A DNA stretch of 64,000 nt from a virus (IMGVR_UViG_3300023719_000001:1-64000); one strand, 5' to 3'. Positions 19,863 through 62,259 are shown, counted from the stretch's first letter. Translations and numbers: made by a program. The notes: a model not told the origin generated them from the sequence alone.

Positions 19863-20159
19863 TTACCTCATTTTTGCTCCGCAATTTAGACAGTATTTTG
19901 AACATAGGGCTATGACTGGTCCTACAGTATTCCCACAGATTGAGCAACCCCATGCCCCATCGTATCTATCTTTACGCCGAATCCAATATCCTCTAGGCCG
20001 CATAGATTCCGCGTCAATTGTCGGAGCGTTTTCAATATTTTTCTTCATGAGAGCGATACCGTCTCGCCAAGCATCGGCTTCTTTTTCACTGTATTGCTTG
20101 ATTGTCCAATTATTTCGGTCAAGCAAAGCATTTGCGTCAATCAACCTAACATCAGCCAT
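19863..20159 (-). CDS. hypothetical zinc-ribbon protein
   Basis: trimmed to MADVRLID...; C-terminal CSICGN...CLNCG; the longer 200-aa ORF would overlap the ligase gene. Confidence 0.35.
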   Translation of the reverse strand: MADVRLIDANALLDRNNWTIKQYSEKEADAWRDGIALMKKNIENAPTIDAESMRPRGYWIRRKDRYDGAWGCSICGNTVGPVIALCSKYCLNCGAKMR

Positions 20160-21483
20160 AAGACACCTCGTTCTTGTCGTTTCGGAATCGCACAAAAGTT
20201 GGGAATTGCAGGGACTCAAGGCCGGTCTTTTTATCCATCGTGACCTCTTTGTATTTACACTCCACAATCTTACCGATGTAATTATCAGGATTTGCCCACA
20301 CAGCAGCTCTCGTAGCATCATCAAAACCAGAACCGACACGAAGCTCGTTGCCCTTGTAGTCCACAACCAGAGCGCCCATCGTACCAGCCAGACGATTCTG
20401 ACCTTCCTCAATCGCGGTGATTCGCAGGTCAACAGTATAGAATCGCTTAATTTTGAGACATCCATTGTGACGAGCCCGACGATAAGGTACGTCCGTGTTC
20501 AACATAAGACCTTCCCAATCGTGCTCGACCGCATAATCAAGCCACTTTGGAATCACGTTTTGGTCTTTTCCTTCATAAACCATGGGAACAATCTCAATAT
20601 TTTCAAGGTGCTTATGAGTAATCTCTGCACGAAGGCAATTCAACCATTCGCGGCGCGTCCGATACGGAACCGTGCATTTACTGCGGTCGAACTCAACAAC
20701 AGGGATGACATCAAAAATAACGAACTTGATGCCCGTCTTGTCCTTACTATCCGAGTTCAATAGGCCAGTGCCATAACGAAAAGCCTCTCCGTCTGACATT
20801 CCTTCTGGATTCTTATAGATAAGTTCGCCATCAAATACCCAAGCATCTCGCTTTGATGCGTCTCCATCGTATAGAGCAAGCAGGTCATTTTTTATATGGT
20901 CGAGTCCTTTAAACTTCTGGACCTGCCGAGAGATGAGCTCGCCTCTATGCATGGTGCCCCTATTGCCATTTTCTTTCTGGCTAAGGCTGAACCAAGTTCC
21001 CTTCTTTAGCTTGACCTTATCAATTGGATATCCCTGCTGAACTTCCCATACAGGAACAATCTCTTCGCCGTACACCTTATTGATGGTAGCTGCTTCAACT
21101 CCAATCGGCAGGTTCTTAGTGAACAGTCGCTTCAGGAACTCTTCGTATTCAGGATTTTTATGTAAATAATTCTGGATTGTTGCGATGGATGCGTCAGAGC
21201 CGGTATTGTGACCGGCACCCATAATATAAAGGTATCCGCAGCTGAGATACTGAACATCGATATCCGGCTTTGCAGCTACCTTCTTATTGATCTTTGCATC
21301 AGACAGGCCAGTAACAATCGCCGGGTCAAGCAGGAATCGGAAGAATGCCATCAGCTCGTCAGCCTCATCTCCAAAATCTTTTCGTGCATCCAGCAAAATG
21401 CGGGTCTTGTCCGTCTTCTTCTTTGCTTTTTGCAATGCCTTAACCATTGCATCAAGCTTACCTATGAGTTCCTTATCTGTCAT
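20152..21483 (-). CDS. ATP-dependent DNA ligase
   Basis: 443 aa; nucleotidyltransferase motifs III (AWVFDGELIY), IV (EGLMLN), V (CLKIKRF); noncanonical motif I candidate KENGNR. Confidence 0.65.
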   Translation of the reverse strand: MTDKELIGKLDAMVKALQKAKKKTDKTRILLDARKDFGDEADELMAFFRFLLDPAIVTGLSDAKINKKVAAKPDIDVQYLSCGYLYIMGAGHNTGSDASIATIQNYLHKNPEYEEFLKRLFTKNLPIGVEAATINKVYGEEIVPVWEVQQGYPIDKVKLKKGTWFSLSQKENGNRGTMHRGELISRQVQKFKGLDHIKNDLLALYDGDASKRDAWVFDGELIYKNPEGMSDGEAFRYGTGLLNSDSKDKTGIKFVIFDVIPVVEFDRSKCTVPYRTRREWLNCLRAEITHKHLENIEIVPMVYEGKDQNVIPKWLDYAVEHDWEGLMLNTDVPYRRARHNGCLKIKRFYTVDLRITAIEEGQNRLAGTMGALVVDYKGNELRVGSGFDDATRAAVWANPDNYIGKIVECKYKEVTMDKKTGLESLQFPTFVRFRNDKNEVSYG

Positions 21484-21496
21484 AAAGCCTCCTTGC

Positions 21497-21523
21497 GTAT
21501 CCTGTGTTATATAGTTATAGCTA
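21497..21523 (-). promoter_or_regulatory. conserved phage motif copy M1 (GTATCCTGTGTTATATAG[ttatag]CTA)
   Basis: 14 nt upstream of the ligase start; matches the ~21-bp consensus with a 6-nt insertion. Confidence 0.4.
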
Positions 21524-21565
21524 ATAAAGAAAGGCTTGTCGTTACGAGCAAGCCATTCCCTTCTC

Positions 21566-21586
21566 GTATCCTGTATTGTATAGCTA
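21566..21586 (-). promoter_or_regulatory. conserved phage motif copy M2 (GTATCCTGTATTGTATAGCTA)
   Basis: sequence identity to the other copies. Confidence 0.4.
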
Positions 21587-21624
21587 AAGAGAGAATTTTA
21601 AGCCTCCGGGATGGAGACTTTTTG

Positions 21625-21645
21625 TAGCTATATTATACAGGATAC
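21625..21645 (+). promoter_or_regulatory. conserved phage motif copy M3 in inverted orientation (TAGCTATATTATACAGGATAC)
   Basis: forms an inverted repeat with M2; 12 nt downstream of the helicase stop. Confidence 0.4.
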
Positions 21646-21656
21646 GCACATAATTG

Positions 21657-23987
21657 TCAATGATTTTCTGAAAATTCTTTCCGTAAAAATTCCTTCAGGA
21701 ACGTCCGCTTGTATGGAACTCTCGAAGTCTTTACAGCCCGATCAAGAGCGTGAGTTTCGGCGCAAATCACACAATACTTCTTGGCACGAGTGATAGCCGT
21801 ATAGAGCCATTCTCTTGTCAACATCAGATATGCGGAGTTGTCCATGCCAACAATCACATACGGTGCTTCACTGCCCTGCAGCTTATGACAACTCAGAGCA
21901 TAAGCAAGTTCAAGCGTTGCCCAGATGTTATTCCCACCAAAGTAATGAGGAATAAATATCGTGCCCCACTGGTCAAAATCAACCAGAATAAAGCTATTCT
22001 CAATCTTTCGGATAATGCCACGGTTTCCGTTGAACACCGGACACTTCTCTTCCTTTTTCTTTGTCTTGAAATTATATGTATGAAGTTCGTAGTTGTTCTT
22101 GTTGATAATAACCTGATCGCCCTCACGCAGAGTGTACACTCTATCCTTGCCATCACCATAGATTGTGACCTTTGCTTCTGCTTGACCACTACTCGGATTC
22201 ACGATTTCCTGAATAGCATTATTGACTTCATAGGTGCAGATACTGCCACGAAGCTTCTGTGGAAGTACAATCTGAATCTTCGCACTATCATTCCCTACCT
22301 TATTATATAAGGTACGGTACTGATTGATGATGTGGTTGAATGACTCACTTGCATCCTTATAGATATCAAGCTCCAAGTCACGAAGTTCACCACGAACCTC
22401 ATTGCCAGCCCAGCCATAAGGAACCAACTGTGTAGCATTACGAACCTTGATGCTCTCCGTAATAATTGCAGACTTAGCTGCCTGACGATGGATCTTAGTC
22501 AAACGAGCTACAGGAACAACCTTAGATGCAAGCATATCTTTGAAGATGTTGCACATACCGATACTCTCAAGCTGGCCGTCATCACCAATCATGATGAATC
22601 GCTTGCCGGTCTCGATTGCCTGAATCAAGTCATAGAATAACTGAGCTCCAACCATAGAGGTCTCATCCAGAATGATAATGTCTTCTTCAAGAGGATTGCC
22701 CTTGTTATGGACGAAACCACCATTCTCAATATCATAACCAAGAAGACGATGAATGGTCTTACCGTCCTGACCAGTAATCTCCTGCATACGAGCTGCGGCA
22801 CGACCAGAAAGTGCAGTCTGAGCAAAAGACTTACCACGAAGAACCTTTAAGACACCAGCGACAACGGTACTTTTACCGCATCCACCAAGACCTGTGACGA
22901 TAGCAATATTGTTAGAGCATACCTTTTTAATAGCATCTCTCTGCTCTTCAGTGTACTCGATACCAAGTTCATCCTCGGCTTCATTGATTGCTACGTCCAT
23001 ATTTCGACCAATCGGATCAACAGGTGCATCCGCCAGTCGCTTGATTTCCTTTGCGATTTCATCTTCCAGATTCCACACTCTAGTTAAAGCAAATTCCTGA
23101 CGGTCATCACTCCACCAAAGTGTTTCACGGACATCGTGCAGATGGAAAAGTGCCCTTTTGATGACTTCTTGGTCACCCTCATTCAAATCAAGTTCCTTGA
23201 TGCAGCTATTGATTGTCTGGTTTGCCGGGATAATAGAGTTTCCTTCTTCGGCACGGGCAGCAAGAAAATGCATGACGTAAGCTTCGATTCTGAATTGCGA
23301 ATTGTGCTTTAAGCCCATATTCAAAGCAAGAGCATCAGCTTTTTTCCAGCCGATGCCATACACATCGTCAATCAGGACGTAAGGATTCTCTTCAATCTTT
23401 CTCACCAGAGTGTCTGCACCATGATATTGACGGACAAGCTTTTCAATAGCACTAGGGGTCAGACCGTACTCAATTAGCTTTGTGTACGCCTCACTGTTAT
23501 CAATGTTGTTTTCATAAGTATCAATGATCTTTTGAGCTCTGCCTTCCGTAATACCACCAACAGTGCAAAGCGACTTGATATCACCATTCTTGATAATCTC
23601 ATACGGATTTTCGAATGCTTCATAAAGTATCTCAAACTGATGGTCGGTCAGGATATAATGGAGAAAGCTTTTCTGTTCTTCCGGGTCAGTAATCTCTTGA
23701 AACTCATTCATATAAATGATTTTATACTGGTCACCAAACTTTTCATGATGAACATACTCACCACAGAACGAATAAGTTTTATTCATATCGAGGCTAGGAA
23801 CGTTGCCCTTTAACCGGAGGTCACTGTATCGACTCATAACAGGATTTCCCTGCTTGACTTTTACCACCTCGGCAGAGAAAGTGGCGAAGCCGCCGGGCTC
23901 CACCTCCCTCCCATCTTTCGGATAAAAGACTCGTTTTATCCTGATGTAGCAACGGATCATATTTTCATTGAATTTTTTATCTGCCAC
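21657..23987 (-). CDS. RecD-like / Dda-like SF1 DNA helicase
   Basis: 776 aa; Walker A TGLGGCGKST, motif II IIILDETSM, C-terminal SF1 motifs. Confidence 0.8.
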   Translation of the reverse strand: MADKKFNENMIRCYIRIKRVFYPKDGREVEPGGFATFSAEVVKVKQGNPVMSRYSDLRLKGNVPSLDMNKTYSFCGEYVHHEKFGDQYKIIYMNEFQEITDPEEQKSFLHYILTDHQFEILYEAFENPYEIIKNGDIKSLCTVGGITEGRAQKIIDTYENNIDNSEAYTKLIEYGLTPSAIEKLVRQYHGADTLVRKIEENPYVLIDDVYGIGWKKADALALNMGLKHNSQFRIEAYVMHFLAARAEEGNSIIPANQTINSCIKELDLNEGDQEVIKRALFHLHDVRETLWWSDDRQEFALTRVWNLEDEIAKEIKRLADAPVDPIGRNMDVAINEAEDELGIEYTEEQRDAIKKVCSNNIAIVTGLGGCGKSTVVAGVLKVLRGKSFAQTALSGRAAARMQEITGQDGKTIHRLLGYDIENGGFVHNKGNPLEEDIIILDETSMVGAQLFYDLIQAIETGKRFIMIGDDGQLESIGMCNIFKDMLASKVVPVARLTKIHRQAAKSAIITESIKVRNATQLVPYGWAGNEVRGELRDLELDIYKDASESFNHIINQYRTLYNKVGNDSAKIQIVLPQKLRGSICTYEVNNAIQEIVNPSSGQAEAKVTIYGDGKDRVYTLREGDQVIINKNNYELHTYNFKTKKKEEKCPVFNGNRGIIRKIENSFILVDFDQWGTIFIPHYFGGNNIWATLELAYALSCHKLQGSEAPYVIVGMDNSAYLMLTREWLYTAITRAKKYCVICAETHALDRAVKTSRVPYKRTFLKEFLRKEFSENH

Positions 23988-35743: not shown

Positions 35744-36037
35744 TTAAACTTTCAAACACTCATACCACGGATCACCCGTTTCAACTGCATGAGCAACATA
35801 ATCCAACTGACGGGTGATGTTATCCACACTATCAACCAGAAGGTCTTTACACCCTACCGGAACAGCACCACCATTGCATTCCGCGTCGGCTTTAGCTTCT
35901 GCAATAATCTCAGGATGCGTAGTAAACACAATAGACATCATCGGAGAGTCTTCTTCAGGTTCCTTTTCAAGCGCTTCGATGTAGACAATGTAAAATTTCA
36001 TACCATTATAAGCGGTATACTCAAGAGTATTCTGCAT
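35744..36037 (-). CDS. hypothetical protein
   Basis: 97-aa ORF with AAGGAG RBS and upstream motif M4. Confidence 0.4.
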   Translation of the reverse strand: MQNTLEYTAYNGMKFYIVYIEALEKEPEEDSPMMSIVFTTHPEIIAEAKADAECNGGAVPVGCKDLLVDSVDNITRQLDYVAHAVETGDPWYECLKV

Positions 36038-36086: not shown

Positions 36087-37187
36087 TTAACCCCAGTCGT
36101 CCTCTTCCTCATTTGCAGGAGTTGCAGTAGACTTGTTGGAACCACCCCACCAAGAAGTGTCGTTCTCAGCAGCCTTGCCGTCGAAGTCCTTCTTAGCCTG
36201 AGTATTGGCAGCAATCTTTGCCCGTGCCTCGGAGATATTGTCCTCTGTGTAAGTAGGTTCCGCATCCTTGTCGCCAGGGTTCGGATCAAAGGAATCAGGA
36301 TTAACGCCCTCAATATACAGCTTACGAACTGCCGGAGTGCTCTGGCGCTTCATCTTATTAGGACCACCCCAGATATTCTCGGTCTCAACTTCCTCAACCT
36401 TCTGCTGATTGACAATGGGGCCAAAACACTCAAAGCTAGTATAAGACTTCAGACGCTTACGAATAGAATCAGCCAGAACCTTATTCTGAGTGTTTGCCTT
36501 ATAGTCAATGAAAAGCTCTGCGTCCTCAATGGTGTTGTAGTTCACAATTTTTGCATCAACAACTACTTCATCATCCTCATCACTCTTGCGGCAACCAGTG
36601 TAAACAATGGTCTGAGTAAACAGAGCCAGCTCCTCGAAACCCTCTGCATCGAAGTCGATTTCCTTAGAGCTCAGAGAAACCTGAGTAGGAACAAATCGAA
36701 TCTGGTGCTTATCGTTGTAAGTGCTGTACTCGATGTTACCACGGACATACACGTTGTCACCGTCATGCAGATTCTCGGAAATCTCCTTAGCTGCATCAAA
36801 ATCGGTCAGAGTCTTGTTATCATTGACGACCTTACCAGACTCATTCGTCTTCTTGGTAACACCGACCTTGACGCCAATCATATCATAGCCTTCCGGTGCA
36901 ACATAAGTCAGACGATCCTTCCAAGCGACTTCCTTCTTATCCTTCTCGATGCCCTTGTCCTTATCGGCACGGCGGAAGAAATAAACCTTATCACGAGGCA
37001 TACCAGCCAGATCAACATAGAAAGTGTTTTCATTGGAAGTCTGAATGCCAAAGCTCAGGACACGGCGCATAGCACCACTCTTAGTCTCCTTCTCGTTATA
37101 GAAGTTGCTACGCTGGGTGCCGGTGACCTTACCAGCCATCTCAAAAGAACCACGGGTCTGAGGAAGATTAAAAATTCTATCTGCCAT
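36087..37187 (-). CDS. putative ssDNA-binding protein
   Basis: 366 aa; acidic C-terminal tail ...ANEEEDDWG; partnered with the Sak4-like gene. Confidence 0.4.
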   Translation of the reverse strand: MADRIFNLPQTRGSFEMAGKVTGTQRSNFYNEKETKSGAMRRVLSFGIQTSNENTFYVDLAGMPRDKVYFFRRADKDKGIEKDKKEVAWKDRLTYVAPEGYDMIGVKVGVTKKTNESGKVVNDNKTLTDFDAAKEISENLHDGDNVYVRGNIEYSTYNDKHQIRFVPTQVSLSSKEIDFDAEGFEELALFTQTIVYTGCRKSDEDDEVVVDAKIVNYNTIEDAELFIDYKANTQNKVLADSIRKRLKSYTSFECFGPIVNQQKVEEVETENIWGGPNKMKRQSTPAVRKLYIEGVNPDSFDPNPGDKDAEPTYTEDNISEARAKIAANTQAKKDFDGKAAENDTSWWGGSNKSTATPANEEEDDWG

Positions 37188-41712: not shown

Positions 41713-42381
41713 TTACTCATTACCAAGCGTATCAGCGATATCCTTGAAGTCATTCCACTTGATTTTGACAATTACTCGATTACCTCTGCGGTCTTTCAAC
41801 TCAACCTTTGGACGACCAACCAGACCTTCCATATAAATGTCATCAATCGAAACCGTAGACTTCGGATGTTGACACACAAACTTGATACCGTCTCGAATCG
41901 TCCCTGTAAACAAAATAGGAACTACTTGGATACCAAACATCTGAGCAGTCTTTTCAACCCACTCTCTACTCTGGTAGTTATCACCAATCAGGACATCGAA
42001 CAAGATGAACCACTCATCAGGTCAGTATCCATGACCACATCCTTGAATTTTGCCACCATAACCCTCTCCAAAGAGGATTACTTCTTTATCACCGTAAGTC
42101 TGTTCAAACAATTCCTCTGCTTCAGAAGTACCGAAAATTTCATTTAGTGCATTCAGCAGATTCTTTGGAAGTTCTGCACGTTCAGTTCGTCCGGCAAAGC
42201 TGACTTTATGACCGTCCCAGCAAACACGCACATTCGTGCCATCCACTTTCTCAGTAAATTCCCACTCATTATTTTGTAGGAACTCAATGGTTTCATTACG
42301 AAAATCACCGATAATCAGCTTTTTAGTGCCTTCGATATCACGATTAAACACCGTTTCGATTTTTTCGTAGGTTTTCATCAA
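41713..42381 (-). CDS. Rnl2-like RNA ligase interrupted by a single in-frame TGA (at 42022-42024)
   Basis: motif I EKVDGTN, motif III ILFGEGYGG, then ...GHGY-TGA-PDEWFILFDVLIGD (motif IIIa), motif IV EGLVGRP, motif V IVKIKWNDF; both halves verified by hand to be in the same frame. Confidence 0.6.
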
Positions 42382-42846: not shown

Positions 42847-44919
42847 TCAGATAACCACTTTCAAAATTCGCTCAGTAGCTCCCTGCACCTTAACAATAAA
42901 GGAATCCTGCTTCGTTTCAGAGAATCCAACGCCGGACAGCTGATCATTTACCGACTGAACTGCCATCTGAGAACCCAGCGCCTCAAATACTCGCTTATGC
43001 TGTAGCAATTCCGCCTTCAGGAATTCGTTGTAAAATCCGTTCGGCTTTTCGGGGTTGACGCAATCCTTGAGCATGAAGAAGTAGTGACGATTGCCATTGC
43101 CGGTCTGTTCGTCCCAGTAGTTCGGAGAGTACATCGCCACAGACACAGGTACGAACTGGTTGGAACTCACACCCCAAATTTCACGGGTGCTGGTAGAACT
43201 GGGAAGCAGTTCCTTGATAGAGAATTTGCCATCCTTCAGAGTGACCTTTGCCACAGCTACATTCTGACCACCATGCAGCGGCTTATCGTAGTTAAACGAG
43301 TAGATGTTGCCATCGAATTCGATTTCAGCACGGAAACCGGTTTTGCCGCCGCGACTAGCGAAGCAGTTTACATAGAAGCTGTACTCGCCTTCCTTCATCT
43401 TTTTGATGTCAGGCCAGGTGATATTCTCGACCGCGGCCTTATAGCGAATGGGACGCATAATATCTACGTCCAGGCGGCCATCAGTACGAGGGTGCCACTT
43501 GCTGCCGAAATAGATGTGATTCTTATCGGGTTCAATGCAATGAGCATCCTCATCATTTTCATCCCACTCGCCCGGCTTATCGTTCCACTGAATAGAGAAA
43601 CGCAGCACGCCATCGACTTTGCCGCCAGCATTCTTGACGTTCTCTCGAATCTGGCTGTCAGTCATGTTACCTGTATACGCCCAACTGAATCCATTTGCCC
43701 ACTTGAACATAGACGGCGCACTCTTATCCTGCGGAGCAACCAGAGACACCATGTTCTTCGAGAACCGATTTTCCATAAACAGTTCCAGACCTGCTGCAGT
43801 AGGCAGAACTTCTTTGACGAACTTTTCAATACCAATTTCTTCTGCGCGGCCGAACTTCTTGGGGTCGGTACCCAGAGACTTTGCCATTGCCTCGAACGGA
43901 TTCGCAGCGCCAAGCACACGAGGAGCGGCATCGCGGTTGCAGAACAGAATGTTGTTGGCAGTAATATCATCCAGAGTGGCGAACCGACGACCCAGACTGT
44001 TCATATAGCCCAGCTCAGTGACGGTTTTCTGTGCATCCTCCAGCATCTTCTTAGTGAAAATTGCCTTTGGACGCTTATAGTTTGCAGGAGCAACAACCTT
44101 CTCAAAGGCAGTGACGGCAGAATCTACATCCATACCTTCGCTCAAATTGATAAGAAGGGTGCCGATAGCGGTGTTACGAATGCGAAGCTGCGCCGCCGTA
44201 GCATACGTAGGGGCAAGCCATACAAAGGCAACCTTTTCGTCAACAGACAGTTTGTCATAACCAATCTTATCGTGCTTAAACTCCTTTACAGACCGCTCAA
44301 ACTCCTTGCCGCGATACAGACTATTCTGTGCAATCAGCTCCAGAACAGTATCAACCGCATCCATAGTCAGTTCTTCCAGAGAACGCTTGAATACATTCGC
44401 CGAATCGCGCCACTGAGCCATCTTAGCAGCTACGTCATCTCCGCTGGTAATGAAACGCTGCGGAATATTAACTGCGAAATGATCCCAAGTATGTACGTCC
44501 TTATGGTTTTCGTCGTACTCGTAGTTCATCACGGTGCCGAACATATCTCCAGAACCGATCATATTGCGACTGACAAAGTACGGATTCACAATGGTACGGC
44601 TCTTCACATAGGCAGCCAGCGCATCAACAACCGGCTGATACTTGGCAGACTTTGCATCGAAATCCCAGATGGAAATCAAATTATAATTCTTATCAAACGC
44701 CACCAGTTTACCGATATTTTTCACAAAACGGCGGCAGCAGGAACAGTCATACTCACGACGCTTTCGGAACAGCTCATTCGTGCCGGCCGGGAAGCTGTCG
44801 AGATACAGATTGTACAGTTCGTCTTCGTCTGCATCGGTGATAAACAGAGGGTTTTCGCTCTTCACCATCTCGTCAAAATGCTCCTGCAGCAGAGTACGGA
44901 ATTCTTTAAAATCAGACAT
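42847..44919 (-). CDS. large hypothetical protein (690 aa; Cys cluster DCSCCRRF), GC-richer than its surroundings
   Basis: long ORF with GGAG RBS and motif M6 upstream; natural amino-acid composition, unlike the 621-aa antisense ORF. Confidence 0.55.
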   Translation of the reverse strand: MSDFKEFRTLLQEHFDEMVKSENPLFITDADEDELYNLYLDSFPAGTNELFRKRREYDCSCCRRFVKNIGKLVAFDKNYNLISIWDFDAKSAKYQPVVDALAAYVKSRTIVNPYFVSRNMIGSGDMFGTVMNYEYDENHKDVHTWDHFAVNIPQRFITSGDDVAAKMAQWRDSANVFKRSLEELTMDAVDTVLELIAQNSLYRGKEFERSVKEFKHDKIGYDKLSVDEKVAFVWLAPTYATAAQLRIRNTAIGTLLINLSEGMDVDSAVTAFEKVVAPANYKRPKAIFTKKMLEDAQKTVTELGYMNSLGRRFATLDDITANNILFCNRDAAPRVLGAANPFEAMAKSLGTDPKKFGRAEEIGIEKFVKEVLPTAAGLELFMENRFSKNMVSLVAPQDKSAPSMFKWANGFSWAYTGNMTDSQIRENVKNAGGKVDGVLRFSIQWNDKPGEWDENDEDAHCIEPDKNHIYFGSKWHPRTDGRLDVDIMRPIRYKAAVENITWPDIKKMKEGEYSFYVNCFASRGGKTGFRAEIEFDGNIYSFNYDKPLHGGQNVAVAKVTLKDGKFSIKELLPSSTSTREIWGVSSNQFVPVSVAMYSPNYWDEQTGNGNRHYFFMLKDCVNPEKPNGFYNEFLKAELLQHKRVFEALGSQMAVQSVNDQLSGVGFSETKQDSFIVKVQGATERILKVVI

Positions 44920-44949
44920 TGTTATTCTCCATTCAAATACTATTTTTAA

Positions 44950-44970
44950 GTATCCTGTATTATATATCTA
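44950..44970 (-). promoter_or_regulatory. conserved phage motif copy M6 (GTATCCTGTATTATATATCTA)
   Basis: ~30 nt upstream of the 690-aa gene start. Confidence 0.4.
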
Positions 44971-45005
44971 ACGTATTAAAATCAAGGAGCCGAAGCCCCC
45001 TGTTT

Positions 45006-45932
45006 TTAATTTTTATGGAAATATTCGACCCAACCTTTGTATCCTTGTCTGAAGCTAATGTAGGCAACCTTGCTACACTTTCTTCCGATAATGTCTGCAA
45101 GAGGGTCTTTACCATTTCCGAAACTAAGTTCTGCAAGATTAAATTCTGGATTATTCTTACAGTAGTCGTAGACCTTCACGTATTCGCCGTTTCTGGTTAG
45201 ATGCCTTCGATCTAAAGCCTTTGAGTGATATCTTTTTTCGAGGATGTTATTCAACCGCATAAAATAGGTATGAATTGTATGCACAGACATCTTTGGGTCA
45301 CTGTCTGCACCGATACTATCCTCGGTTTTACGAATGATGTAATCACCATTCATGACATAGAATGCCCTATACCCTCCCTTATTGGGAGCGTCATACTGTT
45401 TCATTTCATAACACTGCTTAATAATATCCATCAACTTTGCATCAACACCTGTCTTATCAAGAACAGTACAAGATTCAAAATCGACATCGTTAATCGTCAG
45501 GTTAGAAACTTCTTCAGAAGTAAGGCCAATCCAGTACAGTGCAGCAATCACGTTCATACGAATCTGATATGGCTCTTCATACTTATTTAAGAAGTCAACA
45601 AACTCATCAACTGATGCAAAGTATTTATCCGCATACATATTGTCTGCGCTTACATCGCTCTCTGAAAAGTCAGCCAGATCATACATGCTTGTTTTGTTTT
45701 CGCTTTTGATGTAGCCTGTGATTATTGACTTCACATTTTTAAACGAACGACTCGAGTTCACCCAATTATATTTGGCAAACATCTTTACGAAATCATCTTT
45801 TGTGAAGTCAAACAACTCATACCCACGCTCAGCCTCGTAACCCAGAACATGGTTAAGCGTCGATACAACAAACTCACCGCTTCTATCAGAATACTTTTCA
45901 GCAAAAGCTTTGATCTTTTCTTCAGTAAGCAT
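45006..45932 (-). CDS. putative site-specific (tyrosine) recombinase-like protein, weak
   Basis: 308 aa; C-terminal HTIHTYFMRL...RR...VAYISFRQGY weakly resembles box II of the integrase family; hairpin plus T-run follows the stop. Confidence 0.3.
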   Translation of the reverse strand: MLTEEKIKAFAEKYSDRSGEFVVSTLNHVLGYEAERGYELFDFTKDDFVKMFAKYNWVNSSRSFKNVKSIITGYIKSENKTSMYDLADFSESDVSADNMYADKYFASVDEFVDFLNKYEEPYQIRMNVIAALYWIGLTSEEVSNLTINDVDFESCTVLDKTGVDAKLMDIIKQCYEMKQYDAPNKGGYRAFYVMNGDYIIRKTEDSIGADSDPKMSVHTIHTYFMRLNNILEKRYHSKALDRRHLTRNGEYVKVYDYCKNNPEFNLAELSFGNGKDPLADIIGRKCSKVAYISFRQGYKGWVEYFHKN

Positions 45933-45985
45933 AGTGGCACACTCCTTCTTATTATATGTAGTGTACCATTAACCATTATAAAAAA

Positions 45986-46405
45986 TCAAGCAAATGCGGC
46001 AAAATTTTGAAATTCCATGGTATGTTGTACGCCGCTCAGGAATGCTGCGAGTAAAAACGGTTCATCCTTGCATCTTGCCATTGCGATCATATTCATATGA
46101 CGCTCAGACAAGACACCAAGCTTTTTGATGAACTGTCCTTTGTTAAGTGTATCAGTCTCTTCACAAAGAACGATACTATCAACCTCTAGGAAATCGCAGT
46201 CTTCTTTCGAGAGTAGAACATGAACCGGAGAACGCTTGTATATTCTGGAAGACAACGGATTCCCTTTGATTGTGGGACTGAAGAAGTTGCGCTTGTTGTT
46301 GCTTGTCACAACGAACGGTCGAATACCGCGCTGCTGATGACCTGTTGCATTGGACAAATCGACCAACCAAACCTCTCCGACCTTTGGGTCAATATTGTTG
46401 TCCAT
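45986..46405 (-). CDS. MazF/PemK-family endoribonuclease toxin
   Basis: 139 aa; VGEVWLVDLSNATGHQQRGIRPFVVTS and DTLNKGQFIKKLGVLSERHMNMIAMA match the MazF fold signature; no MazE-like ORF directly upstream. Confidence 0.7.
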   Translation of the reverse strand: MDNNIDPKVGEVWLVDLSNATGHQQRGIRPFVVTSNNKRNFFSPTIKGNPLSSRIYKRSPVHVLLSKEDCDFLEVDSIVLCEETDTLNKGQFIKKLGVLSERHMNMIAMARCKDEPFLLAAFLSGVQHTMEFQNFAAFA

Positions 46406-46441
46406 AGTTTTTCTCCTCTATAATAGTGTAGCTCCGTTCCA

Positions 46442-46462
46442 TAGCTATATTATACAGGATAC
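46442..46462 (+). promoter_or_regulatory. conserved phage motif copy M7, inverted orientation (TAGCTATATTATACAGGATAC)
   Basis: lies between the MazF start and the stop of the upstream gene. Confidence 0.4.
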
Positions 46463-46496
46463 CATTTCAGAAGTCAAGAGGTTTTTGAAAATATTT

Positions 46497-46841
46497 TTAG
46501 TGCCCGTACAACTCGGGATTCTCTGATACGAACACGCTTGTGTTATCGAATATCATCTCATACGCTTTCTCTTTATCGCCCGGTCTAAGCTCAATCCTCC
46601 TTGCTTCGTGGCATTCTTGCCGCAGCTCAATATGACTTTCGTTTCCGAAGAAGCCAATGCCTTTAACGATCCCATGTGTCTCTGTTCCAACATCGTTCAT
46701 TTTGTTACAGACCATGTGAACATCTACACCATTGCAAACAAAACAAACCCACACTCTCTTTTTTCTTATGTACTTTAAAAAGTCATCAACTCGTATGACC
46801 TTCAGAACCTTTCTCTCACGCATTAAAACACCGCCCTCCAC
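46497..46841 (-). CDS. hypothetical protein
   Basis: 114-aa ORF preceded by a strong sigma70-like promoter. Confidence 0.4.
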   Translation of the reverse strand: MEGGVLMRERKVLKVIRVDDFLKYIRKKRVWVCFVCNGVDVHMVCNKMNDVGTETHGIVKGIGFFGNESHIELRQECHEARRIELRPGDKEKAYEMIFDNTSVFVSENPELYGH

Positions 46842-46864
46842 TCATTTAGACAACTTTCAAGATA

Positions 46865-46892
46865 TATTATACACATCTTTTTGTTTTAGTCA
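46865..46892 (-). promoter_or_regulatory. sigma70-type promoter (-35 TTGACT, 16-nt spacer, -10 TATAAT) within a duplicated TATATTATACA(C)ATCTTTTTGTT element
   Basis: read on the minus strand ~20 nt upstream of the gene start at 46841; second partial copy at 46893-46915. Confidence 0.5.
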
Positions 46893-46947
46893 ATATATTA
46901 TACATCTTTTTGTTGTTGTAAAAGTTTAAAATTTTAGATGATGCCAT

Positions 46948-47574
46948 TCACTCGGCATCATCCACAACCAGTTCCGCGTTGTAATAGAACCTATGTGCGC
47001 CAAATTGTCCAGCGAACGTTGCTCCGCGCTCGTGCCAACTGCCGGAAGCTGCCGCCGGGGTCACAAACCATTGAATTGGTTTGTCTGAAATTTTAGCGCC
47101 GTAATCAAACACCATAGACACAGCCAATTCGTTCTCTGCCGTCACCTTCCTATTATATAAGGAACTATAACCATACTTCTTAAAGACCTGCTGGATGGTT
47201 AGACCATCAAGTACGGCAGAATCATAAAGACATTGAGCCACAGCCATCTGACCTTCTAGGCTATCAGCACCTGCTTCACAAGCAACGATCTGCTCCGCAA
47301 GAGCACGCTCATCATTAGTGAGTTCGCGCTTTCCCTGACTGAAGTTTACCACACGCGTTTCGATAACAGTTTTTACGATGACTTCTGGTTCCTTTTCCTC
47401 TTGCTGCACAACACTTACTGCCGGAGGACTACTATTATAAAGGTACGAATTGCTCTGATTTTGAATTACCGGGCTGATCTTCGATACCAGATTCCCTGCC
47501 AGCAAGCACATTATACACACAATGGCAACACTTTGCTCACAATTTATTAACAAATTAGAGTTAATGAAAATCAC
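46948..47574 (-). CDS. SleB/CwlJ-family cell wall hydrolase (candidate endolysin) with N-terminal signal-anchor
   Basis: 208 aa; Hydrolase_2-like EGQMAVAQCLYD and C-terminal WHERG...GAHRFY; hydrophobic N-terminus. Confidence 0.6.
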   Translation of the reverse strand: MIFINSNLLINCEQSVAIVCIMCLLAGNLVSKISPVIQNQSNSYLYNSSPPAVSVVQQEEKEPEVIVKTVIETRVVNFSQGKRELTNDERALAEQIVACEAGADSLEGQMAVAQCLYDSAVLDGLTIQQVFKKYGYSSLYNRKVTAENELAVSMVFDYGAKISDKPIQWFVTPAAASGSWHERGATFAGQFGAHRFYYNAELVVDDAE

Positions 47575-47595
47575 TTCCCTTCAAAAATATTGGTT

Positions 47596-47787
47596 TTATA
47601 AGCTGCGCAAAAATTCATACAGCTCAATTTCACCTTGCAGCCAAACGATATCTCCGCCAGCCTTCAAATACACCGAATAGATCTTATCAGGATGCTCGAA
47701 GATAGATTCTACCTTCTTAGCTGCGTTCCGATCAATAAGTACACTACTCATAGTCTTATTCTCCTTCTTCAAAACGCATATCCACAC
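47596..47787 (-). CDS. hypothetical protein
   Basis: 63-aa ORF. Confidence 0.3.
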   Translation of the reverse strand: MWICVLKKENKTMSSVLIDRNAAKKVESIFEHPDKIYSVYLKAGGDIVWLQGEIELYEFLRSL

Positions 47788-48104
47788 ACATTATTATGCA
47801 GCGGCGGTTCAATCTCGAATGCTGTGTCACTCTCAGCATCATATTTAAACCACCTCGTCAATTCTGGTCTTGGATACAGACCTTCCTCGTATCCTTCAAC
47901 GACTGCGTAGTTGTAACAATGTTCAAAGATGTCAGTCACGTTTTCCTTAACAACTCGAATAGCCTCTGCTAAATCTGTAAAGAATCCAGCAATCCAACTG
48001 TCGTCCGGCATCCAGTAGATGCCTTTGGTATTTGACACTGGCGAACTAAATTTCGCATTCTGCTCGTTCTTAAACGAGTCAATCATTGTTACGGTATAAA
48101 TCAT
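47769..48104 (-). CDS. hypothetical protein
   Basis: trimmed to the internal Met MIYTVTMID to avoid overlapping the upstream gene. Confidence 0.35.
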   Translation of the reverse strand: MIYTVTMIDSFKNEQNAKFSSPVSNTKGIYWMPDDSWIAGFFTDLAEAIRVVKENVTDIFEHCYNYAVVEGYEEGLYPRPELTRWFKYDAESDTAFEIEPPLHNNVCGYAF

Positions 48105-48337: not shown

Positions 48338-48568
48338 TTATTCGACTCGCTTATTCCACGCTTCGATAAGGTCGGCTTTGATTCTTTCCTTGTCTTTTTC
48401 AGAGGAATCAAAGTAGTAAGTTTTGCTTTCCATGAAAACATGGCAGTTGCACCTATTTTCTTTGTTTCCTCTCGTAACATACATCCATCGTGTTTGGCGA
48501 TAACTGCCCTCTGCAACGGTAACTTCTCCACCACAAAAAGGACACGGCTTTAATTTATATTCACTCAT
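48338..48568 (-). CDS. Lar-family restriction-alleviation-like protein
   Basis: 76 aa; N-terminal LKPCPFCGG zinc-ribbon signature of the Lar family (from memory). Confidence 0.4.
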   Translation of the reverse strand: MSEYKLKPCPFCGGEVTVAEGSYRQTRWMYVTRGNKENRCNCHVFMESKTYYFDSSEKDKERIKADLIEAWNKRVE

Positions 48569-51686: not shown

Positions 51687-52379
51687 TCATGCTGTTTCCA
51701 GCTCTCTTTTAACCAGCGGACGACGTTTTGTTGCGTTTTTTAGCCAATCGTTTCCACTGGGAGCTTGTCTATCCACTCTTGTATTGCGACCACAACCAGT
51801 CGGACACACCCGGCGATAATCATCGGCAGTCTTGCAACCAAGAGATTCCGCTTCATCCAGAGCTTTTCGCACATAAGCCCATGTACTACCACCTAGATCA
51901 GAACACTTTCCAATCACAGCAAGTACAAGTTCATCGCCCATGCGCTCAACATATTCTGCCAAAGCCTTCTTTCCTGCAACACCGAGCTTTCCGATGTCCT
52001 CTCGAAAGACATCCTCGATAGATTTCGTCGTTGTCGCTTCATCACTAGACGAAGACGATATCTTATCTTTTTCTTTCTCTTTTTCTTTTTCTAGCTTGCT
52101 CTTGCTTGCGTTTGCTTCGTTTTGCTTACGCTTGCTTTCACCGCCAGCTTTTCCAGAAATGCGCTTACCTTCGATGTATTCGGCATCTTTAATTAAATCT
52201 CTCTTTACAGCAGGCCACACATACCGCTCATTTCCGTTGAGTTCAGGCTCCATTCCAGACGATTTATATTTCATCATCGCCAGTACTAGACGCCCCACCT
52301 CAGCAGCACTAAGGGGCTCAAAGTAGCTCTCATAAGTATCCCAGATTTTAATATAAGTATCAGCCATAACACACCTCAA
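51687..52379 (-). CDS. DnaD-domain replication-initiation-like protein
   Basis: 230 aa; C-terminal WAYVRKALDEAESLGCKT resembles the DnaD domain; Lys/Glu/Ser-rich linker. Confidence 0.4.
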   Translation of the reverse strand: MRCVMADTYIKIWDTYESYFEPLSAAEVGRLVLAMMKYKSSGMEPELNGNERYVWPAVKRDLIKDAEYIEGKRISGKAGGESKRKQNEANASKSKLEKEKEKEKDKISSSSSDEATTTKSIEDVFREDIGKLGVAGKKALAEYVERMGDELVLAVIGKCSDLGGSTWAYVRKALDEAESLGCKTADDYRRVCPTGCGRNTRVDRQAPSGNDWLKNATKRRPLVKRELETA

Positions 52380-53245
52380 GAGTTTTCATGGCAGTCCACG
52401 CCATAATCAATCCCAGAGTAGTATTCATCATCCACTTCTTCATCCAGACCAATATAGCGAAGCGTAATTGCCTGACTACTGTGATTTAGACTATACTGCA
52501 ACCACGCAAGAGCTTTTATGTCATTTGGACGAGATGCAATAAACTGATATCCGAAAGTTTTGCGGCAGCTATGAGAACCAAGCTGGACAGGAAGATTTAG
52601 CTCCTTACCAACTTGACGCATGATTCTACCAAAAGAATCCACATCAAGCGGATCGCCCATTTCTTTTGGATTTGCATCATACTTACGGAACACATCAGAT
52701 TTACTTACGCTTGTTCCACCGTTTGTTCTCATGGAGTTCTTCCAACTGCCTTGCCGAGACGGGAAGAGCCAATCGTCATAAGACAATCCATCAATATTGA
52801 TATAAGTTTGAATACACTTTAGTGCCGGGACCGGAACTTTAAGAATGCGATACTTATTTGTTTTCTTTTCCTTAACACGAAGTTTTGCGTTGAAATTCAC
52901 CACAACCTTTCCATTCATATCTGTAGCTGCTACATCAGAAACCTTCAAACGAAGCAAATCACTTGCTCTGAATCCTGTGCAACATCCTACATTAAACAAA
53001 CACCAGTTGCGGTACTGACGTTTAATCCAGAAATATTCTGAAATACGTTTAATATCTTCTTTGTCCTTAATCGGCTGAACCGTTCCATGATTCGCTTCCA
53101 TCCGAGTCAGGTTATAATTCCTTTTGATTACTTTCTGGTGCCTTTCTTCTTTAGAAGAATCATATTCAGAAAAATCAAAAGCAACCGTATTCTCGTTTTT
53201 CTTTTCATTCTCAAGTGCGTTCATTACATTCACCTCAAATTCCAT
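52376..53245 (-). CDS. tyrosine recombinase (phage integrase family)
   Basis: 289 aa; GFRASDLLRL (box I Arg), HSCRKTFG (H-x-x-R), LNHSSQAITLRY (GHS...Y). Confidence 0.6.
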   Translation of the reverse strand: MEFEVNVMNALENEKKNENTVAFDFSEYDSSKEERHQKVIKRNYNLTRMEANHGTVQPIKDKEDIKRISEYFWIKRQYRNWCLFNVGCCTGFRASDLLRLKVSDVAATDMNGKVVVNFNAKLRVKEKKTNKYRILKVPVPALKCIQTYINIDGLSYDDWLFPSRQGSWKNSMRTNGGTSVSKSDVFRKYDANPKEMGDPLDVDSFGRIMRQVGKELNLPVQLGSHSCRKTFGYQFIASRPNDIKALAWLQYSLNHSSQAITLRYIGLDEEVDDEYYSGIDYGVDCHENS

Positions 53246-61080: not shown

Positions 61081-61338
61081 TTACTCTGCAATCATCATAG
61101 CGAGAACTGGTTCACCGGAATCTTTCAGCTGAAGTTCCAGAATGCCGCCGTCATCCACAATCTCACACTTGCTTAGATAATCCTGAAGAAAGAACATCTG
61201 ACATTCCTGCCAAAAGATTTCTTTCGGATCTTCGTCCTCATCTACGAATACATTCTTATGATGAAAAGATTCATTCCAAACCCAACCAACACCATCAAAA
61301 CAAGCGTGAAGTTCCCTCAGATCCCACATAATCATCAC
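61081..61338 (-). CDS. MWDL-family small protein, divergent copy 5
   Basis: begins (MMI)MWDLRELH; tandem with four closer paralogs. Confidence 0.4.
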   Translation of the reverse strand: MMIMWDLRELHACFDGVGWVWNESFHHKNVFVDEDEDPKEIFWQECQMFFLQDYLSKCEIVDDGGILELQLKDSGEPVLAMMIAE

Positions 61339-61558
61339 TCCTTAAAACTCCAGTTTTTCTTAGTTCTTTCACGAGCACTTCCTCGATATCCTCTTTTTCA
61401 TTTTCTGAAACGTTAAGATGATAAAAAACACGAATTGAATTGTACAACCGCTTACACACATACATAACATCGAAATAGTATTTATCATTCGTGTTGAACA
61501 TCAAAGCGTGGCCAGTACCATCTTCTTTATGGTAATTGTTTTCAATTAAATCCCACAT
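61295..61558 (-). CDS. MWDL-family small protein, copy 4
   Basis: MWDLIENNYHKEDGTGHAL...; paralog alignment. Confidence 0.45.
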   Translation of the reverse strand: MWDLIENNYHKEDGTGHALMFNTNDKYYFDVMYVCKRLYNSIRVFYHLNVSENEKEDIEEVLVKELRKTGVLRSDDYVGSEGTSRLF

Positions 61559-61561
61559 AAT

Positions 61562-61783
61562 TTAAACTCCGTAATTCTTATTCAAATCTTCAAAAAGAAG
61601 GTCTCGAATTTCATCCATATGATCTTCGTCAATTTCATACGGCTTATAAATCATAATGCAGTAGTCCATAACAAGATACATAACCGAATATCCATACGAG
61701 TTTCCATCATCTTCTTTATATCTAAACTCTGCACAGCCAAATTTGTGATCTTCTGCATATTCGTTTGCAATTAAAACCCACAT
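61562..61783 (-). CDS. MWDL-family small protein, copy 3
   Basis: MWVLIANEYAEDHKFGCAEF... Confidence 0.45.
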   Translation of the reverse strand: MWVLIANEYAEDHKFGCAEFRYKEDDGNSYGYSVMYLVMDYCIMIYKPYEIDEDHMDEIRDLLFEDLNKNYGV

Positions 61784-61785
61784 AA

Positions 61786-62022
61786 TCAGTCCTCCCCAAA
61801 AATATGACGCTTGCTAAGGTCATCATAAATAATATCCTCAATTTTATTTTTGGTATTATCATCGAGTTCTCCGTAAGGAGCATCATCAAGATAATAGAAG
61901 TAAATTTCATTTCCAAGGTTCTTGTACATGACACTTACATAAAACCCAGCTGAAATTCCATTCAGTAAAGCATATCCAATACCGTACACTTCTGAATAAT
62001 TGTTACCCATTAAATCCCACAT
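61786..62022 (-). CDS. MWDL-family small protein, copy 2
   Basis: MWDLMGNNYSEVYGIGYAL... Confidence 0.45.
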   Translation of the reverse strand: MWDLMGNNYSEVYGIGYALLNGISAGFYVSVMYKNLGNEIYFYYLDDAPYGELDDNTKNKIEDIIYDDLSKRHIFGED

Positions 62023-62024
62023 AG

Positions 62025-62255
62025 TTAGTCCTCAAAAGTTTTAGAACGTCTTAAAATAATAATTTCTTTCATTTCTTCTTTATCTCTTGCGGTAGCAAAA
62101 GTGATAGAGAAAGAATACTCTGGATAATAAAAAGAAACACAAAAATCAAACACTACATACATGATTGTAAGGTAATGACCTGTTTGTTTGTTCTTGAATT
62201 TTGCTCTTCCGATTTTATATTCTTCAGAGTATCTATCTTCAATTAAATCCCACAT
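62025..62255 (-). CDS. MWDL-family small protein, copy 1
   Basis: MWDLIEDRYSEEYKIGRAKF...; 2-3 nt intergenic gaps along the array. Confidence 0.45.
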   Translation of the reverse strand: MWDLIEDRYSEEYKIGRAKFKNKQTGHYLTIMYVVFDFCVSFYYPEYSFSITFATARDKEEMKEIIILRRSKTFED

Positions 62256-62259
62256 TTTA

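Follow-up and report, generated by a model that had tools for sequence, protein, structure and literature searches.

A 64,000-nucleotide (nt) stretch of viral DNA (IMGVR_UViG_3300023719_000001:1-64000, hereafter the window) carries on its minus strand, at 45986..46405, a gene for a toxin of the MazF/PemK endoribonuclease family that has no recognisable antitoxin. Our main finding is that this mazF gene is the first of a conserved two-gene unit whose second gene encodes a putative master repressor of integrase fold, and that the promoter predicted for the unit lies under an operator-like box repeated elsewhere in the window. Because mazF always stands before the repressor gene, with its promoter under this repeated box, it is probably part of a lysis-lysogeny switch. 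The full reading that we favour, namely that mazF is transcribed only when the repressor is absent, that transcriptional silencing replaces an adjacent antitoxin, and that the toxin takes part in deciding between lysis and lysogeny, is one to which we give a little under an even chance.

The mazF product is 139 residues long. PF02452 (PemK_toxin) matches residues 8-108 (E=3.8e-19, 69.3 bits for a cut-off of 23.1), and PHROG 1936 'MazF-like growth inhibitor' matches at 1.6e-21. The top solved relatives are the MazF of S. aureus (SaMazF; 9e-14) and the MazF/EndoA of B. subtilis (BsMazF), to both of which the phage protein is 30-35% identical. The SH3-like barrel of the MazF fold is present in an AlphaFold model (predicted local distance difference test, pLDDT, 81.5), which Foldseek aligns with 4mzp, 4mdx and 1ne8 over ~114 columns (E ~2e-10; template-modelling score, TM(target), 0.84-0.87). 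R29, the equivalent of the catalytic R25 of BsMazF, is invariant across relatives, and S52, the equivalent of T48, is Ser or Thr among 20 family members; following published MazF structures, we take both to be catalytic positions. Every testable defining feature of the family, that is, profile, fold and catalytic residues, is thus found in this protein. Past the canonical fold it has a C-terminal extension of ~25-30 residues (approximately 110-139), in which the motif ARxxDEPFL..AF..F is invariant across the lineages of the clade. An earlier interpretation of this DNA, which we call the sequence-only reading, had claimed a strong MazF signature here, and rightly so: the open reading frame (ORF) at 45986..46405 contains the peptides that it quoted, and Pfam, PHROG and fold agree. 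Loss of the catalytic residues, which would have spoken against it, is not the case. Its span of 45986-46496 really comprises the mazF coding sequence plus the upstream intergenic region, and the downstream neighbour was overlooked.

Comparison of 80 closely related viral contigs gave a synonymous divergence of 0.26 and a non-synonymous divergence of 0.008 for mazF, that is, a ratio (pN/pS) of 0.03; the same comparison gave 0.19 (upstream ORF) and 0.14 for the flanking genes. From these ratios, mazF is functional and the most constrained gene of its neighbourhood. It is an intact, strongly constrained MazF endoribonuclease as judged from sequence, and RNA cleavage and growth inhibition are its predicted activities.

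Hidden overlapping or antisense ORFs inside mazF were also considered and rejected, four of the five candidates being interrupted in most variants. A 40-residue antisense ORF (46147..46269, plus strand) is intact in 35 of 36 variants; since it has no evident ribosome-binding site we take it as a chance occurrence, which strong constraint acting on the sense frame has probably brought about.

The sequence-only reading had described a solo MazF without a recognisable antitoxin, preceded by a 91-nt intergenic region with a copy of a motif called M7, and this holds. No antitoxin family was matched by Pfam among the 70 small minus-strand ORFs of the window; neither an AbrB, ribbon-helix-helix (RHH) or Phd fold nor a MazE/PemI gene was found near mazF by Pfam and structure modelling; and PADLOC and NCBIfam gave no antitoxin or defence match on the neighbours of mazF. 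The profile and fold check that it had proposed for the flanking ORFs (MazE, PemI, AbrB, RHH) returned none of these: the neighbours are an ORF with a predicted PH-like fold and an integrase-fold protein. The spacer (46406..46496) does contain one copy of the box. Its suggestion that an RNA might neutralise the toxin fared less well: a tandem-repeat search and an Rfam scan of 44500-47800 showed neither repeats nor an Rfam family, the spacer included; the latter is instead made up of a promoter and the operator-like box, so that an RNA antitoxin of ToxI type or type I was rejected as unlikely.

The feature that characterises type II mazEF operons, an adjacent co-transcribed small antitoxin gene, is absent from the locus, which therefore is not a canonical mazEF operon. 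With mazEF/pemIK systems (E. coli MazEF, B. subtilis EndoAI-EndoA, S. aureus MazEF) it shares the toxin family, fold and catalytic residues, and an operator-like site on the promoter of the toxin gene. It differs from them in having no upstream, translationally coupled MazE/PemI gene, in placing the toxin first and a 308-residue putative repressor of integrase fold after it, in the extra C-terminal segment of the toxin, and in a box that is a repeated phage-wide sequence rather than a private palindrome.

The arrangement is highly conserved. The order small ORF (100-127 residues), mazF, MrpR-like ORF (308-348 residues) was found in all 88 loci compared, and in further loci besides, representing eight lineages (the window group, L081, L083, L085/L112, L105, L106, L107 and L108), and genes farther from this unit are shuffled among lineages. 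MazF is 59-77% identical between lineages and its MrpR-like partner 19-33%; the corresponding values in close loci are 97-100% and 83-100%. Megablast of the mazF locus against GenBank phages gave no significant match, nor did tblastn of the proteins encoded upstream and downstream of mazF.

The downstream gene (45006..45932, minus strand; mrpR/sroF-like) begins 53 nt past mazF and encodes 308 residues. Its product matches PHROG 5830 'integrase' at 3.8e-11 and, weakly, Pfam MrpR_N_CB (0.0022); homologues carry recorded MrpR_C_cat/MrpR_N_CB matches, mostly weak or faint, those on L081/L082 and L104 being unmarked. A profile built from eight family members has the SPbeta protein YopR (8bj6, E 5e-4) as its best PDB match, and among six-frame ORFs of the SPbeta genome it again scored YopR best (3.8e-6), the integrase-like YopP remaining unscored. 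The similarity to the CB/CAT-like domains of MrpR is therefore weak but specific. As for tyrosine-recombinase residues, there is no Phage_integrase match and no HxxR among invariant columns; R125 and Y298 are invariant in the sequence alignment. All detectable parts of the family belong to an integrase-fold DNA-binding domain, with no disordered acidic tail. These weak profile matches point to a diverged, putative repressor of the MrpR/YopR/SroF type. YopR (= MrpR = SroF) is the master repressor of SPbeta-like phages, with an integrase fold that has lost recombinase activity, and as a monomer it binds a long asymmetric box that recurs at many promoters, among them the one of its own operon (PMC10516654; bioRxiv 10.1101/2025.11.27.690993).

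A comparable box is present in the window. The spacer upstream of mazF holds a predicted sigma-A promoter, P(mazF) (46449..46477, minus strand; TTGACT, 17 nt, TATAAT), which agrees with 11 of 12 consensus positions; its TTGAC -35 and its -10 are kept in ~95 close loci, the spacer between the hexamers being variable, and a sigma-A-type promoter also precedes mazF in the divergent lineages checked. The -10 is overlapped by the operator-like 21-nt box 'M7' (46442..46462, minus strand; GTATCCTGTATAATATAGCTA), an asymmetric sequence that is one of seven copies of GTATCCTGTATWRTATAGCTA in the window, for 0.01 expected. All seven are intergenic and at promoter positions, the -10 being overlapped in either orientation of the box (only one orientation was tested at P(mazF)). 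The copies at 46442 (mazF) and 21625 are oriented so that the box lies over the -10 of a sigma-A promoter that is nearly perfect (TTGACT/A, 17 nt, TATAAT), and the other five are inverted, each with a TATAAT; inverted copies at 44950, 40517 and 21497 lie directly 3' of a terminator-like hairpin and ahead of the next ribosome-binding site. The first of these (44950..44970, plus strand) is the next copy after that of mazF, and sits at the promoter of the gene for a DUF8224 protein (42847..44919). A long asymmetric box is thus repeated at several intergenic promoters, including that of the repressor's own unit. In divergent relatives, whose repressor is only 25-30% identical, the mazF promoter and the site after mrpR carry repeated boxes of another sequence, as does the site before yorF in L085; such lineage-specific boxes at equivalent sites are the pattern expected of an operator that co-varies with its repressor. 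On these grounds, and by analogy with SPbeta and phi3T (PMC10516654; bioRxiv 10.1101/2025.11.27.690993), we infer that the 21-nt box is the operator of the MrpR-like protein.

A second promoter-like element, P(mrpR) (45960..45989, minus strand), lies between the two genes, its TTGATT -35 over the mazF stop codon (as in several other lineages) and followed by an 18-nt spacer and an extended -10 (TGG plus TACACT). The layout TTGnnn, 17-18 nt, TGn, TAnnnT recurs in eight of eight lineages, the element is invariant in ~95 close loci in which the sequence just upstream is variable, and TGGTAYYC-TACATAT is the sole block of the mazF-mrpR spacer conserved across all lineages. The 21-nt box is absent from it. 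P(mrpR) may serve as a second, weaker promoter, and its position means that the repressor gene could be transcribed with or without mazF. We also considered that the block might belong to a conserved RNA hairpin enclosing a UACAU sequence and the Shine-Dalgarno sequence of mrpR, and rejected it: RNAalifold found no consensus structure in seven lineages. The window, L106 and L105 do have a stem, 8-10 bp long, that shows compensatory changes. Since the promoter layout is general and no RNA structure is shared, the block is better read as an extended -10. A terminator-like hairpin (44983..45002, minus strand) closes the unit, and every lineage has an equivalent one past mrpR. In the window, no such hairpin was found in the stretch from mazF to mrpR; in L081 there is a weak one immediately past the mazF gene.

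This tight association could also be that of a reversed type II toxin-antitoxin (TA) pair like higBA or mqsRA, in which the co-transcribed MrpR-like protein would bind and neutralise MazF as well as repress the promoter; repressor loss would then release MazF, with prophage addiction or a suicidal coupling to induction as the outcome. The strict adjacency of the two genes in every lineage with a terminator after the pair and none between them in the window (the weak one of L081 apart), the operator-like box at the pair's promoter, an arrangement shared with autoregulated TA operons, the usual TA pattern of a toxin far more conserved than its partner, and the conserved extra segment of MazF, which could serve as a docking surface, all suit such a pair. 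However, a partner of 308-348 residues is far larger than known MazF antitoxins and has an integrase fold without a disordered acidic tail, the respective conservation of MazF and partner in close loci gives no sign of a co-evolving interface, and a conserved internal promoter that uncouples the expression of the two genes would be odd for a stoichiometric antidote. We consider a reversed TA pair unlikely.

The remainder of the window agrees with an SPbeta-like backbone. The replication module is colinear with yorI-J-K-L of SPbeta (RecJ 35% identical, E 1e-102), and RecJ places Geobacillus E3 and the phi3T/SPbeta group nearest among cultured phages. Related viral contigs measure 125-150 kb, and the phage genome ~135 kb. 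A tyrosine integrase gene (PF00589, 3.3e-15) is present in the window, as is one for a Tn916-Xis-like protein. A public assembly collection lists the exact MazF protein in 2,119 blocks, the contigs shown coming from human-gut samples; 32 blocks hold carrier contigs of 0.2-1 Mb, which exceed the phage genome, and one source labels a carrier as a Blautia metagenome-assembled genome. The phage is widespread and very common in human-gut metagenomes; it is SPbeta-like and, given the integrase, the Xis-like protein, the carrier contigs of 0.2-0.8 Mb and the Blautia label, probably temperate.

In phi3T, host MazF activity is required for lysogeny and is restrained by the non-adjacent phage antitoxins AimX and YosL, and SroA (phi3T_93), encoded in the repressor operon, frees MazF from MazE (PMC10769878; bioRxiv 10.1101/2023.04.27.537455). 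The unit described here resembles the sro (yopM-R) operon of SPbeta and phi3T in ending with the gene of an integrase-fold repressor (a monomer in SPbeta and phi3T), followed by a terminator, in the long asymmetric box at early promoters including its own, in the SPbeta-like backbone, and, as far as our proposal holds, in tying a MazF-family RNase to the lysis-lysogeny switch; the Bacillus phages also show that inhibitors of MazF need not adjoin it. The difference is that their MazF is a host gene and their operon encodes a MazE-binding protein, whereas here the phage itself encodes MazF within the repressor unit; moreover, the repressor shares only profile-level similarity with YopR, and the box is unrelated in sequence to that of phi3T.

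The scheme that we infer for repressor binding at the box, expression timing, RNA targets and a part in lysogeny would be as follows. As the promoter-proximal gene of a unit that ends with the putative master repressor gene, mazF would be expressed in a repressor-free cell or a derepressed prophage, where P(mazF) would fire and yield a pulse of MazF and repressor. The accumulating repressor would occlude the -10, shut P(mazF) and silence mazF, after which P(mrpR) would sustain the repressor without MazF; an adjacent antitoxin would be unneeded in the lysogen, where MazF would be silenced at transcription. The pulse could cut host transcripts, phage transcripts or both, and so bias or enforce the choice between lysis and lysogeny, by analogy with host MazF for phi3T. 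As a working analogy, the scheme recalls PRE/PRM of lambda, where a strong promoter acts before repressor accumulates and a second one maintains it; proteins, operators and activation logic differ, and here the establishment transcript would also carry a toxin. A variant that we regard as possible but rather doubtful is a toxin-repressor cassette, in which the master repressor takes the place of the antitoxin through the operator and possibly also by direct binding. MazF would then be an establishment-phase effector, or a dead-man switch on repressor loss.

Several points weigh against transcriptional silencing as proposed. MazF proteins are usually stable, and an unneutralised pulse should harm the very cell that becomes a lysogen; because such a pulse should still need a brake at the protein level, an unrecognised inhibitor may exist, be it the repressor, the upstream ORF or a small protein in the other ~70 kb. 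Indeed, the search for an antitoxin covered 64 of ~135 kb, and proteins such as AimX and YosL are not findable by Pfam. The SPbeta repressor operon is thought to be transcribed in lysogens, and a partly repressed P(mazF) would mean continuous MazF. Phage transcripts do not avoid UACAU, which the closest characterised MazFs cut: on the sense strand, 96 are observed for 70 expected. The promoters, operator and terminator are all consensus matches, and the MrpR assignment rests on weak profile matches to SPbeta YopR (E 5e-4 to 2e-3), to which BLAST shows no similarity of the 308-residue family. Homologues of AimR, AimP, YosL and YopM were not found in the window, where BLAST with SPbeta AimR, YopM-Q and YosL gave nothing and no AimX or SroA homologue was detected; the arbitrium arrangement (aimR-aimP-aimX beside the repressor operon, with YosL) is thus absent from these 64 kb of the ~135-kb genome. 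Finally, two scans of 185,579 representative genomes found no relative of this MazF, so that lysogeny in an isolate is undocumented.

One place where such a brake might be sought is the small ORF upstream of mazF (46497..46823, minus strand), 108 residues long when counted from the ATG; the sequence-only reading counted 114 residues (46497..46841), and its statement that the product is not MazE- or AbrB-like stands, as there is no family match and the predicted fold is PH-like. This ORF could encode an antitoxin of new fold, making a three-gene module of antitoxin, toxin and repressor. An ORF of similar size lies on the same strand 70-125 nt upstream of mazF in all eight lineages, it evolves as fast as antitoxins do (pN/pS 0.19; unalignable between lineages), and with no terminator between them, read-through from its promoter would also transcribe mazF. 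Yet the two genes, 91 nt apart in the window, are not translationally coupled, and the gap holds the separate consensus promoter of mazF. In the model the product is a beta-sandwich of PH-like type, similar to YojF; it shows neither a DNA-binding nor a known antitoxin fold, and it lacks an acidic tail. The ORF is 81-100% identical in close loci where MazF is 97-100% identical. Among the other lineages, only the ORF of L083 and, marginally, that of L081 show detectable homology, the rest being barely or not alignable, so that the slot may hold unrelated genes. An antirepressor like Sar of phi3T, co-varying with the repressor, would be an equally good identity for the product. An upstream antitoxin seems to us quite improbable.

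The ORF has its own promoter-like site (46866..46893, minus strand; TTGACT, 16 nt, TATAAT). It lies within 46864-46921, where a tandem duplication (2 x 29 nt) gives two such sites. The -10 region of the duplication has an 11-nt core, TGTATAATATA, in common with the 21-nt box and lacks the flanks of the box.

The sequence-only reading had instead proposed host shut-off or an anti-defence nuclease, a guess that overlooks the strongest context of the gene, namely the repressor, the operator-like box and the SPbeta-like backbone. In this case MazF would be an early lytic weapon that degrades host mRNA or the transcripts of defence systems, and its adjacency to the repressor would be incidental. 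Immediate-early expression uses consensus sigma-A promoters like this one. GenBank has at least 74 phage records with a solo MazF; in the three neighbourhoods that were inspected no antitoxin is annotated, and one of the three genes sits among tail and lysis genes. In most relatives, RNA-repair genes (Pnkp-like kinase-phosphatase-ligase, RNA ligases) are found just downstream; they show that RNA damage and its repair matter to this phage, and such enzymes could reseal ends of the MazF type. What a lytic weapon leaves unexplained is the invariant pairing with the repressor across lineages whose flanks are shuffled. Self-protection is not visible either, as neither UACAU nor any other sense-strand-specific 5-mer is depleted in phage transcripts, the depleted ones being the palindromes CCWGG and GGWCC; self-protection by avoidance of the MazF site was rejected on this count. 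We find this explanation improbable.

The solo phage MazF proteins of PHROG 1936 resemble ours in having no annotated antitoxin (74 GenBank records, for example Lachnospiraceae, Enterocloster, Lactobacillus and Psychrobacillus phages), but they are at most 40% identical, lack the C-terminal extension and occur in unrelated contexts, with an MrpR-like gene beside none of the three inspected. Psychrobacillus phage Perkons, the best GenBank match to MazF, was rejected as a parallel because it has no MrpR-like neighbour. No functional study of solo phage mazF genes was found in the literature.

The mazF-mrpR unit is surrounded by a hotspot of variable accessory genes (GmrSD_N, Lar, RNA repair, Band_7), and this raises the question of whether MazF is a defence gene, expressed at a low level in lysogens and activated on superinfection to abort other phages. 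TA systems, MazF among them, do act in phage defence, and host MazEF blocks SPbeta and phi3T mutants without their antitoxins (bioRxiv 10.1101/2023.04.27.537455). Against a defence role, there is no PADLOC match and no labile antitoxin to act as a sensor, mazF should be silent in the lysogen given the operator-like box over its -10, and the gene itself is core and highly conserved rather than variable cargo. Prophage defence is in our view very unlikely.

To our knowledge, a fixed pairing of MazF with an SPbeta-type repressor under a presumed operator is undescribed. So far, the steering of lysis-lysogeny by MazF in SPbeta-like phages has been studied only with the host-encoded toxin, whereas the toxin gene here is physically within the repressor unit of a related phage. 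Promoter with operator-like box, mazF and repressor make up a compact three-part system in which to ask whether a phage repressor alone can control a toxin. Should transcriptional silencing prove true, this would be a phage-encoded counterpart of the dependence of phi3T on host MazF, in one of the commonest large phages of the human gut; moreover, phage 'orphan' toxins may often be components of switches rather than broken TA modules, and a class of regulated toxins would escape annotation pipelines that demand an antitoxin next to the toxin.

UACAU recurs at particular leaders. It occurs just upstream of the mrpR Shine-Dalgarno sequence in every lineage (45956-45960 in the window), and likewise upstream of that of a yorF-like gene in three divergent lineages. 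UACAU lies within ~0-10 nt of the Shine-Dalgarno sequence for mrpR, for the yorF-like gene and for two genes after it (leaders of 36087-37187 and 35744-36037 in the window), and is kept in divergent lineages (L085:7873-7942, L083:8107-8176); TACAT occurs anywhere in -60..-1 in only 5 of 99 leaders of the window. SPbeta shows no clear parallel. We can only speculate that the leader UACAU is a MazF site, or merely part of a leader or transcription-start context. The mazF ORFs of eight lineages contain one TACAT for 4.9 expected, a weak signal (P ~0.04, from lineages that lack independence).

Most relatives have, immediately past mazF-mrpR, a gene for a protein of ~736 residues with kinase (AAA_33), metallophosphatase and RNA_lig_T4_1 domains, the Pnkp-like RNA-repair architecture (L081:5583-7814, L083:5591-7855, L086:7062-9272). 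The window has in its place the 690-residue DUF8224 protein (42847-44919), followed by a PF09414 RNA ligase split into 42022-42381 and 41713-42003. Such RNA-repair enzymes heal the 2',3'-cyclic-phosphate and 5'-OH ends left by MazF-type RNases, and a functional link between MazF and Pnkp-like repair is conceivable.

Four contigs of 142-146 kb from IMG/VR (L116-L119) encode a distant MazF of 136 residues, 37-38% identical, followed by a 417-residue ORF that has no match to Pfam or to the MrpR-like profile; toxin and large neighbour may here form a pair of a second kind among related large phages.

The integrase gene of the window lies beside that of a DUF6291 protein (52376-53245 and 51687-52379), ~6 kb upstream of mazF; the same pair is only two genes upstream of mazF in L106, which recalls the integrase-like YopP of the SPbeta sro operon. 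A Lar-like restriction-alleviation protein is also encoded in the window (48338-48568).

Two copies of the 21-nt box besides that at 21625 belong to a regulatory cluster (21490-21680) upstream of a DNA ligase gene (20152-21483). The cluster is dense and has first a consensus promoter whose -10 lies under the box (21625-21645). A hairpin comes next, then an inverted box (21566-21586), and past a terminator-like hairpin there is one more inverted box (21497-21517). The first promoter may give only a very short transcript.

The most under-represented 5-mers of the window, counted on both strands, are CCTGG and CCAGG (9 and 8 observed for 41 and 27 expected), and GGACC and GGTCC are depleted as well (4 and 8 for 28 and 25), which suggests avoidance of restriction systems specific for CCWGG and GGWCC. 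Lastly, 61503-62259 contains four copies of a 60-nt segment at a spacing of ~230 nt, over small tandem ORFs (61295-62022 and beyond), and looks like a small array of paralogous genes.

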